Notes under the pieces: model-generated | The model's database searches: none | What the model was told of the DNA's origin: nothing | Seen by the model: only the letters and a program-made list of their open reading frames with translations | From: Candidatus Caldarchaeum subterraneum | GTDB lineage: Archaea; Thermoproteota; Nitrososphaeria_A; Caldarchaeales; Caldarchaeaceae | DNA length: 64,000 bases | NCBI GenBank assembly: GCA_000270325.1 | Contig: BA000048.1 | Span: 515,709-579,708 of the forward strand | Direction: 5' to 3' | Made by a program: the position numbers and the translations under genes | Shown: positions 1,146-56,713 of the stretch, one piece after another | How the letters are laid out: each line of letters begins with the position of its first letter | Position numbering within the stretch: position 1 is the first letter of the stretch

Positions 1146-1167
1146 TCCTGTTTATGGTTGTTGTCTG

Positions 1168-1177
1168 TTTTTTATAT
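1168..1177 (-). promoter_or_regulatory. Putative TATA box (ATATAAAAA) about 28 nt upstream of tRNA-Ser
   Basis: A/T-rich box at the spacing expected for an archaeal promoter; it overlaps the stop codon of the neighbouring gene. Confidence 0.3.
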
Positions 1178-14667: not shown

Positions 14668-15060
14668 ATGGTATGCCTAGATACTGACATAATCGTAGCC
14701 CTGCTCCGCGGGGATAATAAAGCCATAGAAACTATAGAGGAGCTGCAAAGAATGGGTATGCAATTTAAAACTACGATAATAACCGTCTATGAGCTTCTTA
14801 AAGGCGCAGCAATCTCAAGTAAATCATCTGAGAATATCAAGACAGTGAAAGAACTACTTCATAACGTAACCATACTGGGCTTAGACATAGACGCTTGCGG
14901 AAAAGCAGGCTTGATATACAGCGACTTGAGGCGGAGCGGAAAGATGATTAGCGAGTTCGACATATTAATAGCAGCCATAGTCCAACATAACAGAGAAACG
15001 CTAATAACCAGAGACAAACACTTCCAAGAAATCACAACAATCAACATAAGACAATGGTAA
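14668..15060 (+). CDS. vapC: PIN-domain toxin (VapC-like)
   Basis: MVCLDTDIIVALL... conserved Asp near N-terminus, 130 aa, AT-rich context. Confidence 0.7.
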   Translation: MVCLDTDIIVALLRGDNKAIETIEELQRMGMQFKTTIITVYELLKGAAISSKSSENIKTVKELLHNVTILGLDIDACGKAGLIYSDLRRSGKMISEFDILIAAIVQHNRETLITRDKHFQEITTINIRQW

Positions 15061-15408: not shown

Positions 15409-16500
15409 CTACTCAACGGTGGGTATGTCGAGAAGCGTAACCTCGGGTGAGCCGTCGTCGGAGATGCTTGTGAAAACCCTGTCGCTGTGTATGAGTGAGA
15501 GGTAGCTGAAGGTTCGTGAAACAGAGGCCGGTGTTGACCTGTATCCCTCCTCGAGGAGCCGGTATGCGGCGGCGAGGCAGAGAACGTTCAGCTTAACTTT
15601 CCCAAGCGCTCTATGCAGAACACGGTAGGCATCCAGCAGAGCCCGTGACTCGGCCTGCTGCCCCCCAATCCTGAGACCGTGAAACAGCGGAACAAATGCT
15701 GTGAAGAAGGTCTGGTCAACTCTCTCCAAAGGCTTCTCAAACACATCCGACAGCTCGCGGACATTCTTCAGAAACCTCTGCGAAACACTGTAACGAGCCC
15801 GCTTCACCCTCTCGAGAAAACCAACATCCACCAGCCACTCCAGCCGCGGCGGAACAAAGTGCCTATACTTGGCGTAGAGACGGCTCTTAATCCACTCAGC
15901 CTGCGAAGCATACTTCAGCCGCTCCTCCCGAAAACCCGAGGCCTGCTCAAGCTCCCTCTGAACCGATGCACGCCTCCTCTCCGGCATCCTCCTCAACATC
16001 CTCCTAAGAGCCTCGGGATACACCTCCTCCATCACCGCATACATGGCCTCGAGACGGCTGAACTCACGCATCCCAGCCAACCACTTGAGCATCCCAGAGA
16101 AAATGTAGTCTCTGTTCAGCAAGGCGTGGAGAAAGAGCGTCTTCTCAACATCTGTCAACGTCAAAACCTCTGAGAGATTGGCCATCCCCTCACCTGAGAC
16201 ATGCCGCCGCAGAGCCTCCGAAGAATTGAGACAGATATACGCCGCGCCATAGAGGCCTGGCCTTCCCGAAGCCCTGTCATAGAACCCCAGCTGCGCAGCC
16301 AGCTTGACGTAGTTGCGTGCGTTAACCTCGGTCCTGAGCATGCCAGGCATCTCCCCAACATCGTTAACCAAACTCCTGCACGTCTCCAGCAACACCGAGG
16401 CCAAATAGTCAGGTGAACGTGGCGAACCATCCTCGAGGATGCAGGCGATAAGCTTCAGGTAACCTAGTCGACAGACGTCGCCGTGAACCTCCGCTATCAC
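15409..16500 (-). CDS. Hypothetical protein, 363 aa, immediately downstream of and overlapping a methyltransferase gene; candidate restriction/effector partner
   Basis: Long ORF, mostly helical by composition; 4-nt overlap (16497-16500) with the upstream methyltransferase; no recognisable nuclease or ATPase motif. Confidence 0.55.
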   Translation of the reverse strand: MIAEVHGDVCRLGYLKLIACILEDGSPRSPDYLASVLLETCRSLVNDVGEMPGMLRTEVNARNYVKLAAQLGFYDRASGRPGLYGAAYICLNSSEALRRHVSGEGMANLSEVLTLTDVEKTLFLHALLNRDYIFSGMLKWLAGMREFSRLEAMYAVMEEVYPEALRRMLRRMPERRRASVQRELEQASGFREERLKYASQAEWIKSRLYAKYRHFVPPRLEWLVDVGFLERVKRARYSVSQRFLKNVRELSDVFEKPLERVDQTFFTAFVPLFHGLRIGGQQAESRALLDAYRVLHRALGKVKLNVLCLAAAYRLLEEGYRSTPASVSRTFSYLSLIHSDRVFTSISDDGSPEVTLLDIPTVE

Positions 16501-17693
16501 GCTATCCTCACCATCCTCCGTGGCTCACCCTTCGACAAAACAAGAACCTTCTCCCTGTCAACCCCCTGCCAAGACTTGAGATACATCAGATACTTGTGCC
16601 CACGTCTTATGCCGTCGCTTATGATGGCGCGGGCTGTGAAACCGCTTTTCTCAGCAGGCTCGACCAAAAGCTCCGCCAAATCCACCCGACGACCACCCGA
16701 CTTGACATCACCCACAACCAGCACACAGTATCCCCCAGGCTTCAGCATTCTGAAAAACTCATCCAAAACCCTCCCCATAAACTCGACATAACGTTTAACA
16801 GACTGGGTGGCGAAAAGCCGTTTACCGACAACACGGTAATCATGCCCGAGAAACCAGAGCCTCAGCCAGTTATCCCAAGCATAAGTCTGCAGGTTGAGGT
16901 AAGGCGGCGAAGTTACTATGAGGTCGACAGACTCATCCGCTATAGGCAGCGCTGATGCATCCATGTTGAAGGCGGCGCCCCTCGCCTCAGGCAACCCATC
17001 AGCCAAAACAGACTCAGCCTTCCTCAGCAAACAAGCCAAAACATTTCTAACAGGCTTCTTCAACCCATGCTCCGCAACATACCTTCTCATGTAGCGCGGA
17101 GCCATCGAGAAAGAGTGGCTGCATGGAACGCTCAAACTAATCTCGGAAGAACCATGCAGGATACCGAGCATACAGGCCTTCACAAAGTTCGTCACATCGT
17201 CCTCGGAGTCCAGAAGCAGTTCTCTTACGGCCAGTATCTGTTTGAGGGTTTGGGGGTGGTAGAAAGCTCGGACATCTTCGTCGACGTCGTAGACCGAGAC
17301 TGCGTCAGGCCTCATCACTCTCGAAGCCTTCTCAACCCAGCTCCTAACATCTCTGAACATAGCCGGCTTCACCTTCGCACGGGTAACCACATAGGCCTCT
17401 GGAGCAAGGTCGTTTCCCACGCCGACGCGGCCAGTCAAACACGCCTCAAGCGGGGCCGTCCCCTTGCCCGAAAACGGGTCAAGCACAAGGTCGCCGCGCT
17501 CCGAAAACCTCGTTACAACCCAGCGAGCCAACGCCGGCGGAAAAGAGCCCGTCCTCGACATGATGCGGTGAAGCGAGTGACCCCAGCTCCTGCCAAAACC
17601 TTTCCACGAGTCGGAAACCTCGCCGCTGGAAATGTAAGCTATTTCCGTCATCAAAAAACTCGGACCAACCTGCTCCACGCTATAATCATTCAC
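16497..17693 (-). CDS. Amino-methyltransferase (N6-adenine/N4-cytosine DPPY family), motif I before motif IV
   Basis: FPPALARWVVTRFSERGDLVLDPFSGKGTAPLEA (motif X/I) followed about 185 aa later by VDLIVTSPPY (motif IV) and RMLKPGGYCVLVVGD. Confidence 0.7.
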   Translation of the reverse strand: MNDYSVEQVGPSFLMTEIAYISSGEVSDSWKGFGRSWGHSLHRIMSRTGSFPPALARWVVTRFSERGDLVLDPFSGKGTAPLEACLTGRVGVGNDLAPEAYVVTRAKVKPAMFRDVRSWVEKASRVMRPDAVSVYDVDEDVRAFYHPQTLKQILAVRELLLDSEDDVTNFVKACMLGILHGSSEISLSVPCSHSFSMAPRYMRRYVAEHGLKKPVRNVLACLLRKAESVLADGLPEARGAAFNMDASALPIADESVDLIVTSPPYLNLQTYAWDNWLRLWFLGHDYRVVGKRLFATQSVKRYVEFMGRVLDEFFRMLKPGGYCVLVVGDVKSGGRRVDLAELLVEPAEKSGFTARAIISDGIRRGHKYLMYLKSWQGVDREKVLVLSKGEPRRMVRIA

Positions 17694-18450: not shown

Positions 18451-18457
18451 CTATAAA
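18451..18457 (+). promoter_or_regulatory. Putative TATA box (CTATAAA) about 28 nt upstream of tRNA-Gln(CUG)
   Basis: Position and composition only. Confidence 0.3.
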
Positions 18458-18481: not shown

Positions 18482-18596
18482 AGCCCGGTCGTCTAGCGGC
18501 CAAACCTGGTCAGAAGAGGGCCATGGATCTCGGGCTCTGGATCACTCCTCTGTGAGGAGAACCCCGAGGACGCCGGTTCGAATCCGGCCCGGGCTA
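18482..18596 (+). tRNA. tRNA-Gln (anticodon CUG) with two 21-nt introns, one in the D-arm and one at the anticodon loop
   Basis: Exons align base-for-base with the intron-less tRNA-Gln(UUG) at 37525-37597 (AGCCCGG-UC-GUCU-AGCGGCCAA...GGAU); anticodon stem TCGGG/CCCGA, loop CUCUGG; T-arm GCCGG-TTCGAAT-CCGGC; discriminator A. Confidence 0.65.
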
Positions 18597-18991
18597 TGGC
18601 TTTGTTTCATTTCTAAAGGCCGGGGTTCATGTTGGAGCGAAAGAAGCAACGGCTCGAGGAACACTTAGGAGAAGAAGACTCCTGCCAGCCAGCCAACCCA
18701 TTATAATGGTTTTTAGCCATGAATCGTTTTCCTTTGTGTCCAAAAATTGGCTGATGAGCGATGATGTTCTTCTAGCTTCTGGTAGAGGCTTGCATTTTTC
18801 CTAACCCGTGACCACACACTTGTGTGATAAGCCTCTCGGGTCAAGCTCTTGCCCCCAACACGGACATGAGATCCGTTGAAGAAATCACGCTGCTCGAGCG
18901 GTATGTGGTTGGAGCGGAGACGACTGTCGCTGCATAACTTCGCTGGAATTCTTATATCGTGGGTAATTTATTATTTTGTGGGAAGAATTCC

Positions 18992-37524: not shown

Positions 37525-37597
37525 TAGCCCCGGTGGGATTTGAACCCACGTCGCGGGCTCCAAAGGCCCGCATCCTTGGCCGCTAGACGACGGGGCT
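37525..37597 (-). tRNA. tRNA-Gln (anticodon UUG), no intron
   Basis: Acceptor AGCCCCG/CGGGGCT, anticodon stem CGGGC/GCCCG with loop CUUUGGA, T-arm GTGGG-TTCAAAT-CCCAC, discriminator A. Confidence 0.75.
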
Positions 37598-37622
37598 GTT
37601 GTATGTTTTGTTGCTTTGTTTT

Positions 37623-37925
37623 TTAAGTTTGTTGTTTGGTGGGGTGTGAGTAGGTGACTTGGTCTACGCTGTGGACCGCTGCGCCGAGTTGTTTGACGGT
37701 GTTGGCGATTTGCTCGAAGTTGATGTTGTTGCCTTCGACGGTTAGCTTGACTGTTTCGGTGTCGGCGTCTACCTCGATGATGGATACCTCCACTTTCGTC
37801 ACACCCCTGAGCCCTGTCAAAGCCTGAGCAAACTCGACCATACCCGGTTTATGGGGTTTCAGCACATCCAGGACCAGCCGGGTCAGGACCAGCTCATGTT
37901 TATCAGGCATTTTACGTGTATTCAC
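37623..37925 (-). CDS. DUF211-family small archaeal protein
   Basis: RLVLDVLKPHKPGMVEFAQAL...ETVKLTVEGNNINFEQI...HSVDQV resembles the conserved ~95-aa DUF211 pattern (from memory). Confidence 0.55.
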   Translation of the reverse strand: MNTRKMPDKHELVLTRLVLDVLKPHKPGMVEFAQALTGLRGVTKVEVSIIEVDADTETVKLTVEGNNINFEQIANTVKQLGAAVHSVDQVTYSHPTKQQT

Positions 37926-49105: not shown

Positions 49106-50333
49106 GCGGCTTCACCCCCATGACGCTTAGCTGGCTCGGCTCGACGCCGCGGGACACGAGCAAATCTCTCCGTCCACATAGTTCTCCGACGCTTTTCACG
49201 CCGACCTTGTCGAGGATGAGCTTCAGCTCCTCTGTCCATCCGTTCACCATGTTCACAACCCATTTGGTCGCCGTGTCAAGGGAAAGAAGCTTAACGGGGT
49301 TGTCGTCGATTTTGTTGGTTAACACGGCGGGGCAGAAGCCGAGGTGGCACTTATGCACCATGATACAGCCCATCGCAATCAACGAAGCTGTGCCAAGCGA
49401 GACAAGGTCCGCGCCCAGCGCTATCAGCTTCGCGGTGTCCTCCGCGCTGCTCACACGACCAGCAGCAACCACGGAGAACCCTTCACGCAAACCCTCGCGT
49501 CTAAGCATCTCATCAACCACGGGAACAGCTATCTCGACAGGCAGCCCAACATTATTCCTCACAACCGCGGGCGCCGCACCCGTCCCCGCACCCTGACCAT
49601 CCAAGATAATTCCATCCGCACCCATCCGCGCAACACCGCAGGCGATGTAGCCGATGTAGTTCGTCACACCGACCTTGACGAAAACAGGCTTGCCAGTGGC
49701 TTCCTTCAGAGCCATAATCCGTTGGCCAAGGTCCTCGATGGAGTAGATGTCATGGTGGGGTGCTGGAGAGATGGCGTCGACGCCCACGGGTATGCGCCGT
49801 GTCTCGGAGATGAGGCGCGACACCTTTACTCCCGGAAGGTGGCCTCCTATGCCAGGCTTCGCACCCTGCCCAATCTTGATAACAATACCCAGCCCCGTCA
49901 TCAACACGTCGATGTCGACGCCGAAGCGTGCAGAAGCCCACTGCACAGTAATTCTCCTACATTTTCTCACCTCGGGGTGAAGACCTCCTTCACCCGTGCC
50001 CGTGAGTATCCCCGTCAAATCCGCTGCACGGGCGAGGGCTATGTTGGGGACGCCGCTGAGGGCTCCGAAGCTCATGTCGCCGAGGTAGATGGGTGTGGTG
50101 AGGGTTATCTCCCCGCCGGCCATGGAAACGGATGCATCGACACCCGCTACCTGTTTAACAGTCTCCCTTTCATCGTCTTCAAGCTCGGCCTTGAACACCA
50201 GCCTGTCGAGGAGACGGCGTGAAGAATGCTTGGCCCTGTCCCACACCCAAACAGGCTCACCGAACCGGGCCAGCTGCCTGATATGCTCAATCCTCGTCCT
50301 GTTCCAGAACTCGGGCCCCTCCTGCCTCGGCAC
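49098..50333 (-). CDS. Glutamate synthase FMN-binding (GltB-type) domain protein
   Basis: [18 protein letters not shown] and [18 protein letters not shown] signature motifs. Confidence 0.7.
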
Positions 50334-52616: not shown

Positions 52617-52701
52617 GCGGGGGTCGCCAAGCCTGGTCAACGGCGCAGGACTGAGGCTCCTGTCCCGAAGGGGTTCGTGGGTTCAAATCCCACCCCCCGC
52701 A
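52617..52701 (+). tRNA. tRNA-Leu (anticodon GAG), type II, no intron
   Basis: Acceptor GCGGGGG/CCCCCGC, anticodon stem CAGGA/TCCTG with loop CUGAGGC, 14-nt variable arm, T-arm GTGGG-TTCAAAT-CCCAC, discriminator A. Confidence 0.75.
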
Positions 52702-55360: not shown

Positions 55361-56713
55361 ATGTGTGGTGGATGTTTTTTGTTGCGTGTGGTGGGGCTGC
55401 GTGGTGTGGGTGATGTTGCGGCAGGGTTGAGGAGCGGGTTGGCCGCTGTTGAGCCGGGTGCTTTGATTCGTCGAGTGGTGAAGCGGCGTGGTGGATGTCT
55501 GCAAATAGGGGGTAAGGTGGTTGAGCTGAGACGATTCCGCGACTTTGTCATAGTTGGCGGGGGGAAGGCTGCGGAGGGAATGGCCGCTGAGATGCTGCGG
55601 CTTCTCGACGGCTTAGACGTCAGAGGCGTGGTTGTTGTTCCACGTGGATACAGGCTGAGACGGCGTCTCAAACCTCTCGAGGTTCTATACGGAGGCCACC
55701 CGCTGCCAGACAGTATGAGCGAGGAGGCTGGGCGGCTGATACTCGAGATGGCTTCATCATGCAGCGGCGACTCGCTTGCTTTTGTTCTTGTCTCGGGTGG
55801 TTTTTCGGCGTTGGCCGCCGTGCCAGCTGAAGGTGTTTCGCTGCAGGACAAGGTTGAGGCAACCTCTGCGCTTCTGAGGGCCGGCGCCTCGATAGATGAG
55901 TTGAACACTGTGCGGAAGCATCTCTCAGCCTTCAAAGGTGGATGGCTTGCGAAAAGCCTCCGCTGCAGGGCCTTCTCCCTCATACTCTCCGATGTTGTCG
56001 GCGACCGTGTCGACGTGATTGGCTCGGGGCCCACTGCACCTGATCCCACAACCTTCCGGGACGCCCTCGATGTTTTGAGGAGGCGGGGTGTGGAGGTGTC
56101 TGAGAATGTTTGGCGACGGCTGCGTCGGGGTGCTGAGGGGATTTATCCTGAGACGCCTAAGCAGGGTGACCCGTGTTTTAGACGTGTTGTGAACGTGGTT
56201 GTCGGCGGCTGTGTCGACTCGGTGAAGGCCGCCGCTTTGGAGATGCGGCGAAGAGGTTACAGTGTTGTTGCGTTGACGAGCGGTGTTGTGGGGGAGGCGA
56301 GGACTGTGGCGAACCTTTTCGCCGCGGTGGCCCGTGATGTGGTGAGGCATGGTGTTCCCCATGCTCCGCCTTTTGCTCTGGTTGCAGGGGGTGAGACAAC
56401 CGTGACAGTGCGAGGACGTGGTAGAGGAGGCCGCAACCAGGAGCTGGTTTTGGCCACCCTGCATCTCTTACGTGATGTTCCGAGGTTTGTTTTCGCATCG
56501 ATTGGCACAGATGGGGTGGACGGCGTAACCGATGCCGCGGGAGCGGTCGCGACTCCTCAGACTCTCAGAAACGCGGCTAAGGAGGGGCTTGACCCTCTGC
56601 CGTTTCTCGAGGACAACGACTCCTACACGTTTTTCAGCAGGGTTGGTGGACTTGTTTTGACGGGGCCCACTGGCACAAACGTGGGCGATTTGATGATTCT
56701 CGCCATCAGGTAG
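55361..56713 (+). CDS. Glycerate kinase (MOFRL family)
   Basis: VIVGGGKAAEGMA, GGETTVTVRGRGRGGRNQE and SIGTDGVDG motifs; true start may be a downstream GTG/TTG. Confidence 0.7.
   Translation: MCGGCFLLRVVGLRGVGDVAAGLRSGLAAVEPGALIRRVVKRRGGCLQIGGKVVELRRFRDFVIVGGGKAAEGMAAEMLRLLDGLDVRGVVVVPRGYRLRRRLKPLEVLYGGHPLPDSMSEEAGRLILEMASSCSGDSLAFVLVSGGFSALAAVPAEGVSLQDKVEATSALLRAGASIDELNTVRKHLSAFKGGWLAKSLRCRAFSLILSDVVGDRVDVIGSGPTAPDPTTFRDALDVLRRRGVEVSENVWRRLRRGAEGIYPETPKQGDPCFRRVVNVVVGGCVDSVKAAALEMRRRGYSVVALTSGVVGEARTVANLFAAVARDVVRHGVPHAPPFALVAGGETTVTVRGRGRGGRNQELVLATLHLLRDVPRFVFASIGTDGVDGVTDAAGAVATPQTLRNAAKEGLDPLPFLEDNDSYTFFSRVGGLVLTGPTGTNVGDLMILAIR

Follow-up and report, generated by a model that had tools for sequence, protein, structure and literature searches.

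The segment at positions 18482-18596 (+) of the window, the window being the whole stretch of 64,000 nt that was analysed, is a real gene for tRNA-Gln(CUG) carrying two introns, and it was already described in 2011 for Candidatus Caldarchaeum subterraneum. The gene is almost certainly functional, and it is highly probable that both introns are excised via bulge-helix-bulge (BHB) motifs by an (alpha-beta)2 splicing endonuclease. The exon and intron boundaries, the cloverleaf formed after removal of the inserts, the BHB folds at both introns, their covariation and the apparent fixation of both introns across the genus were all directly observed.

BAJ50423.1, BAJ50424.1 and BAJ50426.1, three proteins from the 1,680,938-bp composite genome of Ca. 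Caldiarchaeum subterraneum, each had an identical counterpart encoded in the window. In the genome paper of this organism (Nunoura et al. 2011, Nucleic Acids Res 39:3204, PMC3082918), introns were reported in 13 of 46 tRNAs, at canonical as well as D-, V- and T-arm positions and with BHB motifs; tRNA-Gln CUG was one of three multi-intron tRNAs, and the splicing endonuclease was heterotetrameric. A later paper of the same group misprinted the gene as tRNA-Glu[CUG] (PMC3293823). The first-pass annotation had viewed multi-intron tRNAs with non-canonical introns as a trait of certain crenarchaeal/TACK lineages, which agrees with the host being a TACK archaeon and with the literature, where such tRNAs are well documented and are modelled by default in tRNAscan-SE 2.0 (PMC8450103, PMC4033280). 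A kinase gene near tRNA-Gln(CUG) was also present in Logan assemblies of Japanese runs, on contigs that end before the tRNA.

Gene ends, exons and flanking sequences

The gene spans 115 nt, or 73 nt once spliced, and does not encode CCA. Its letters divide into exon 1 (AGCCCGGTCGTCTAGCGGCCAA), intron 1 (ACCTGGTCAGAAGAGGGCCAT), exon 2 (GGATCTCGGGCTCTGG), intron 2 (ATCACTCCTCTGTGAGGAGAA) and exon 3 (CCCCGAGGACGCCGGTTCGAATCCGGCCCGGGCTA). The two ends pair as a perfect 7-bp acceptor stem, the 3′ strand of which is preceded by a perfect T arm (GCCGG TTCGAAT CCGGC). The ends were recovered by an independent acceptor/T-arm scan, and ARAGORN run with the -i option returned the same ends and a ctg anticodon, but with a single forced 22-nt intron and a distorted fold.

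Exon 1 (18482-18503, +) comprises the 5′ acceptor strand, nt 8-9, the 5′ strand of the D stem and the D-loop sequence AGCGGCCAA. The first intron (18504-18524, +; 21 nt) is non-canonical; the BHB cut rule and the tRNA-Gln(UUG) paralog locate it between nt 21 and nt 22 of the D-loop. Exon 2 (18525-18540, +), parsed by hand and from the spliced product, supplies the 3′ strand of the D stem, nt 26, the 5′ strand of the anticodon stem and nt 32-37, including the anticodon CTG at 18537-18539 (+). It is followed at the canonical 37/38 position by the second intron (18541-18561, +; 21 nt), which was placed by a strict hBHBh′ motif. Exon 3 (18562-18596, +) consists of nt 38 (C), the 3′ strand of the anticodon stem, the variable loop GGAC, the T arm, the 3′ acceptor strand and the discriminator A73.

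Spliced at these cuts, the product is predicted to read ...GCGGCCAA/GGAUCUCGGGCUCUGG/CCCCGAGG... across the joins. Removal of the inserts leaves a canonical cloverleaf whose anticodon loop has 7 nt and in which all pairs of the acceptor stem (7/7), anticodon stem (5/5) and T stem (5/5) are formed, and the 73-mer was called tRNA-Gln(ctg) by ARAGORN. The identity as tRNA-Gln was evident from the YUG anticodon within the 7-nt loop and from exons homologous to archaeal tRNA-Gln; A1-U72, A73 and the D-arm sequence GTCTAGCGGCCAAGGAT are common to the CUG gene, its UUG paralog and 110 homologues among the matches listed. The gene also has the features of a multi-intron tRNA, with two 21-nt inserts separated by a 16-nt exon, each having its own BHB motif and one lying outside 37/38. 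The first-pass annotation, which had proposed a tRNA-Gln(CUG) with one 21-nt intron separating the D-loop from the 3′ D-stem strand and another in the anticodon loop, was borne out by the base-by-base parse of the boundaries, by the ARAGORN call on the spliced 73-mer and by the positions 21/22 and 37/38.

The intron-less paralog tRNA-Gln(UUG) at 37525-37597 (-), detected by ARAGORN and by the Rfam tRNA model (60.2 bits), served as the exon reference. The spliced CUG 73-mer was identical to it at 56/73 positions. A base-for-base match of the exons through acceptor, D-stem and D-loop had been claimed earlier; this held for the first 26 nt with the sole exception of nt 6, which is G in one gene and C in the other and is compensated on the 3′ strand.

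A TATA-like box, TATAAA, was read from the sequence at 18452-18457 (+), its centre lying ~27 nt before the start of the mature tRNA, and is a putative promoter on the basis of the known archaeal promoter layout. Downstream of the gene, the T-rich stretch GCTTTGTTTCATTTCT (18599-18616, +) is likely to be an archaeal terminator. A/T-rich TATA-like boxes were also seen at ~37619-37627 (-) for tRNA-Gln(UUG) and at ~1167-1176 (-) for tRNA-Ser(UGA). The centres of the three boxes lie 26-28 nt upstream of the respective mature 5′ ends, a spacing which suggests that the 5′ leaders are very short or absent.

Just upstream of tRNA-Gln(CUG), the 12-16 kb region of the window has a reduced G+C content (0.465-0.478). 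The 14.6-17.7 kb region encodes a PIN-domain protein (14668-15060, +), a 363-aa protein with no Pfam match (15409-16500, -) and an N6/N4 DNA methylase (16497-17693, -), the start of the 363-aa gene overlapping the stop of the methylase gene by 4 nt. These genes could represent a restriction-modification or toxin cluster, or an element integrated near the tRNA.

By the acceptor/T-arm scan, the window has no more than four credible tRNA genes; besides the two tRNA-Gln genes, these are tRNA-Ser(UGA) (1048-1145, -) and tRNA-Leu(GAG) (52617-52701, +). At its gathering threshold, Rfam reported only tRNA-Gln(UUG) and tRNA-Leu(GAG) in the window; it gave no tRNA at 18482-18596, and both intron-containing tRNAs were missed. 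Default ARAGORN returned a false tRNA-Ser(gga) at 18503-18596. The tRNA-Gln(CUG) gene is therefore a clean case of a tRNA missed or mislabelled by routine tools, and the only CAG-specific tRNA of the genome would go unannotated if no intron-aware finder for archaeal tRNAs were used. With a lowered threshold, ARAGORN also proposed two intron-containing genes, tRNA-Ile(gat) (49840-49951, -) and tRNA-Cys(gca) (55936-56042, +); in each, several stem pairs are mismatched and the acceptor/T-arm scan is failed, and the two are likely false positives.

For tRNA-Ser(UGA), the single 12-nt anticodon-loop intron noted in the first-pass annotation was confirmed, on the minus strand, a detail which had been left unstated. 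By the BHB rule this intron is ACAAGACATGAA (12 nt), and ARAGORN placed it two bases earlier because the junction has repeated A/G bases. The central helix is CUUG/CAUG with a U-U mismatch. The loop has only 5 nt, leaving no space for an intron-side helix, and the motif is therefore of the bulge-helix-loop type.

Folding of the two exon-intron junctions

The canonical archaeal motif has a 4-bp central helix that includes the first two anticodon bases, and its splice sites lie in the flanking 3-nt bulges (PMC4090602); each cut was therefore placed after the second bulge nucleotide. For intron 2, the central helix pairs CUCU (C32-U35; 18535-18538, +) with GGAG (18556-18559, +). The bulges are GGA (18539-18541, +) and AAC (18560-18562, +), the intron-side helix is UCAC (18542-18545, +) with GUGA (18552-18555, +), giving 4 bp, and the exon-side helix is the 5-bp anticodon stem, UCGGG/CCCGA. 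This is a strict hBHBh′ motif, with cuts at 18540/18541 and 18561/18562 that correspond to 37/38.

In an alignment of 54 distinct homologues, the 37/38 motif was 98.1% paired, with double changes at 8 pairs, and nt 34 covaried with its intron partner (C-G in 30 genes, U-A in 14 and U-G in 10). None of 500 shuffles matched the observed score, and the true register beat every slid register. For this alignment and the one used for intron 1, pairs were counted in fixed-register segments cut from each gene, so that there was no alignment bias beyond the choice of register. The BHB cut rule assigns C38 (18562) to the Caldarchaeales CUG isoacceptors, hence C at both loop positions 32 and 38; A38 is present in the majority of UUG isoacceptors and in every intron-less tRNA-Gln gene seen.

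The motif of intron 1 is a relaxed BHB. Its central helix pairs GGCC (18498-18501, +), which includes G18 and G19, with GGCC (18519-18522, +). The 5′ bulge is AAA (18502-18504, +), cut after 18503, and reads AAA, AAT, AAG or AAC in nearly all homologues; the 3′ bulge, read directly, is AUG (18523-18525, +), with its cut between 18524 and 18525. Since G18525 has the further option of a U13-G22 wobble that closes the D stem, the 3′-bulge side is relaxed. The exon side consists of an internal loop adjoining the D stem, with no clean 3-nt bulge. The intron-side helix is weak here (C-G, C-G and U-A with a bulged A) and well formed in homologues. Only cuts at 18503/18504 and 18524/18525 reproduce the sequence of the intron-less UUG paralog, AGCGGCCAA joined to GGAT. 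Both junctions thus fold as BHB, the point on which the first-pass annotation had staked its reading, strictly at 37/38 and with GGCC/GGCC and the AAA bulge in the D-loop.

When folded locally, the D region gave the D stem, the GGCC/GGCC helix and internal loops. In the minimum free energy (MFE) fold of the whole precursor (RNAfold), the D-loop GGCCA was instead paired with UGGUC of the intron, at -51.2 kcal/mol versus -43.5 for the BHB-competent fold. As the MFE fold preferred this rival hairpin, the D-loop motif was judged on comparative evidence and not on energy. In an alignment of 90 distinct homologues, the D-loop motif was 88.5% paired and its central helix 87% paired. The third pair of the central helix was C-G in 56 genes, U-A in 17 and U-G in 5, and each of the three pairs in the intron-side helix showed double changes. 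As with the 37/38 motif, 0/500 shuffles matched the observed values, and the true register beat slides of 1-3 columns.

Distribution of the introns and the conserved tip of intron 1

GTDB species representatives were scanned for tRNA-Gln genes in which the D-loop GGYC and GGA are separated by 8 or more extra nt. At least 110 genes with an insert at the D-loop site were parsed cleanly. Among the matches listed, those from the Caldarchaeales (Aigarchaeota) belonged to Caldarchaeum, Calditenuis, Geocrenenecus, Pelearchaeum, Terraquivivens, Wolframiiraptor and Benthortus, and those from outside this order to Pyrobaculum, Thermoproteus and the Woese-, Micr-, Aenigmat- and Nanoarchaeia. Across the Caldarchaeales, Thermoproteales and several DPANN lineages, the tRNA-Gln D-loop intron at 21/22 is thus very widespread. 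In 92 of the 110 genes listed, four D-loop bases paired 4/4 with the four bases before the last two intron nucleotides. The recurrence in at least 110 genes, together with the covarying helices, excludes chance as the source of the two-intron layout. A single bacterial match, from a Fermentibacterales MAG, had no tRNA features nearby and was discarded as a chance match to the degenerate pattern.

JGI metagenomes were scanned for Caldarchaeum-type CUG genes with a pattern that permitted 0-30 nt at each site. Both introns were present in 18/18 loci, with lengths of 18-27 nt and 16-29 nt, and an intron-less CUG allele of this type was found in 0/18. Both tRNA-Gln(CUG) introns therefore appear to be fixed in Caldarchaeum, as judged from the sampled loci, and this fixation bears on the question of ancient origin versus repeated spread.

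The UUG gene at 37525-37597 (-) is intron-less here. In many other Caldarchaeales, a UUG gene contains introns at both the D-loop and 37/38 sites (six listed loci and others, from Calditenuis, Geocrenenecus, Pelearchaeum and Wolframiiraptor). This suggests that the Caldarchaeum UUG gene either lost its introns or was replaced by a processed copy. In about 17 DPANN-type loci, the 3′ end of the D-loop insert (e.g. ACAA-AA-GGAT) and the GGYC of the D-loop did not pair in the register applied; in these, the intron probably lies a few nucleotides away or a different helix is formed.

The tip of intron 1 carries the conserved motif CUGGUCAGA (18506-18514, +), identified by comparison of homologues, nearly invariant throughout the Caldarchaeales and written CUGGYCAGA in general form. 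Its core, GGYCRGR, was found at this tip in 62 of the 110 genes listed, all of which were of the Caldarchaeales type and also had the 37/38 intron. The variants were CTGGTCAGA (31 genes), CTGGCCAGA (16 genes), CTGGTCGGA (5 genes) and other, rarer forms (10 genes). The motif occurs in both tRNA-Gln isoacceptors, CUG and UUG. Among the matches listed, it was absent from the same-site introns of Thermoproteales and DPANN, and it was lost in a few Caldarchaeum lineages (five loci). In 0.9 Mb of loci, no copy was found in other tRNA-like contexts, and the only matches were chance ones in coding regions. The intron 2 loops of the same 62 genes, which serve as an internal control, were unconserved.

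The stem beneath the motif ranged from ~1 to 8 bp in the 62 genes and changed freely in sequence. The variation in length speaks against a fixed tertiary contact. A repeat of the D-loop GGCCA is contained in the motif, which can pair with the D-loop as in the MFE fold, and the 3′ half of the motif is complementary to the anticodon-loop UCUGG. Since CUGGYCAGA is kept in both isoacceptors while the stem varies, a role beyond presentation of the splice site was considered next to simple inheritance of the sequence, and is an improbable reading. Candidates would be a folding switch or a stand-in for the D-loop GG while the real GG is locked in the BHB helix, a site for a processing factor, or an intron-derived small RNA that might be stable and possibly circular.

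Alternative readings, splicing route and known systems

The D-loop insert might also be removed without a single BHB, through separate relaxed half-motifs or by refolding with CUGGYCAGA, possibly after intron 2 has been excised. The MFE fold, in which the UGGUC of the motif is paired with the D-loop GGCCA and no central helix is formed, is consistent with such a route, as are the conservation of CUGGYCAGA, for which a BHB has no need, and the ordered removal that some archaeal introns require according to the tRNAscan-SE 2.0 paper (PMC8450103). However, the replacement of C-G by U-A in the central helix of 17 genes is direct evidence for pairing of the D-loop with the 3′ end of the intron, the same-site introns of Thermoproteales and DPANN are plain hairpins lacking the motif, and some Caldarchaeum lineages keep the intron after motif loss. 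This route is therefore unlikely. Less likely still is that one or both junctions are one nucleotide off, for example with intron 2 at 18542-18562, giving A38 rather than C38. Such cuts would keep a valid 7-nt anticodon loop, A38 would match the intron-less tRNA-Gln genes, the second intron starts with A in nearly all homologues, and the A runs at intron 1 leave its 5′ cut undefined by sequence alone. Against this, the shifted cuts would land at the bulge/helix boundary, contrary to BHB geometry (PMC4090602), and at intron 1 only the cuts given above yield the D-loop sequence of the paralog.

The failure of Rfam and default ARAGORN to recognise the gene might point to a decaying tRNA pseudogene whose inserts are never removed. 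The stems are nevertheless perfect after removal, the BHB geometry is maintained with compensatory changes across an order-level clade, none of the 18 metagenome loci held an intron-less CUG allele, and a TATA-like box lies at the expected distance. Furthermore, tRNA-Gln CUG is counted, and needed, in the set of 46 tRNAs that jointly cover all 61 sense codons (PMC3082918). A pseudogene is thus very improbable. The tRNA-Ser(GGA) at 18503-18596 reported by default ARAGORN has practically no chance of being correct: it starts inside the D-loop and ignores the perfect 7-bp acceptor stem from 18482, and it arises only when introns are not modelled. It was refuted by the -i option, which gives Gln(ctg) at 18482-18596, by the tRNA-Gln exons shared by all homologues and by the call on the spliced 73-mer.

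For the preferred reading, a functional gene with two BHB introns, the following route is proposed. A precursor of ~115 nt would be transcribed, probably from the TATAAA at 18452-18457, and would end at the T-rich stretch after 18596. Each exon-intron region is predicted to fold as a BHB, with a 4-bp helix and two 3-nt bulges on opposite strands, and the endonuclease would cut after the second nucleotide of each bulge in both motifs. The enzyme would be of the heterotetrameric (alpha-beta)2 type, which is tolerant of relaxed motifs at non-canonical positions; non-canonical or relaxed motifs can also be cut by endonucleases of the epsilon2 type. An RNA ligase would then join the three exons to give the 73-nt tRNA reading CAG codons.

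As a discovery the gene carries little weight, since it was named in the 2011 genome paper, its class is well studied and its layout is common in related archaea. The tRNA-Gln CUG of Nunoura et al. 2011 is the same gene from the same genome, with no difference in substance; the text of that paper (PMC3082918) is without its intron coordinates or motif details, both of which were worked out here. Within the same genome, tRNA-Thr(GGU) is also interrupted twice, at 24/25 and 45/46 (Sugahara et al. 2012, PMC3293823), with one intron in the D arm. Unlike tRNA-Gln(CUG), for which both introns were present in 18/18 loci sampled, it is a polymorphic gene, of which alleles with one intron, alleles with two and a fragment occur in the population.

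Multi-intron tRNAs of the Thermoproteales, such as the tRNA-Pro(UGG) of Pyrobaculum islandicum (Sugahara et al. 2007, 2008, cited in PMC4090602), which is interrupted at 25/26, 37/38 and 56/57, likewise combine canonical and non-canonical BHB-type introns in one gene, in a lineage with the (alpha-beta)2 endonuclease. The tRNA-Gln genes of Pyrobaculum and Thermoproteus share the same D-loop site (eight loci). However, among the matches listed, the Thermoproteales tRNA-Gln genes have the D-loop intron only, without the 37/38 intron and without the CUGGYCAGA loop.

Hirata et al. 2011 (PMC3241643) showed that the (alpha-beta)2 endonuclease on its own cleaves the D-loop intron of Aeropyrum pernix pre-tRNA-Thr2(UGU) in vitro. 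That intron is likewise non-canonical and lies within a BHB, and the likeness is drawn at the level of the D-loop; it differs in being the single intron of a different tRNA from a different phylum. By this analogy, the A. pernix tRNA-Thr is the best experimental precedent for the splicing route proposed for tRNA-Gln(CUG).
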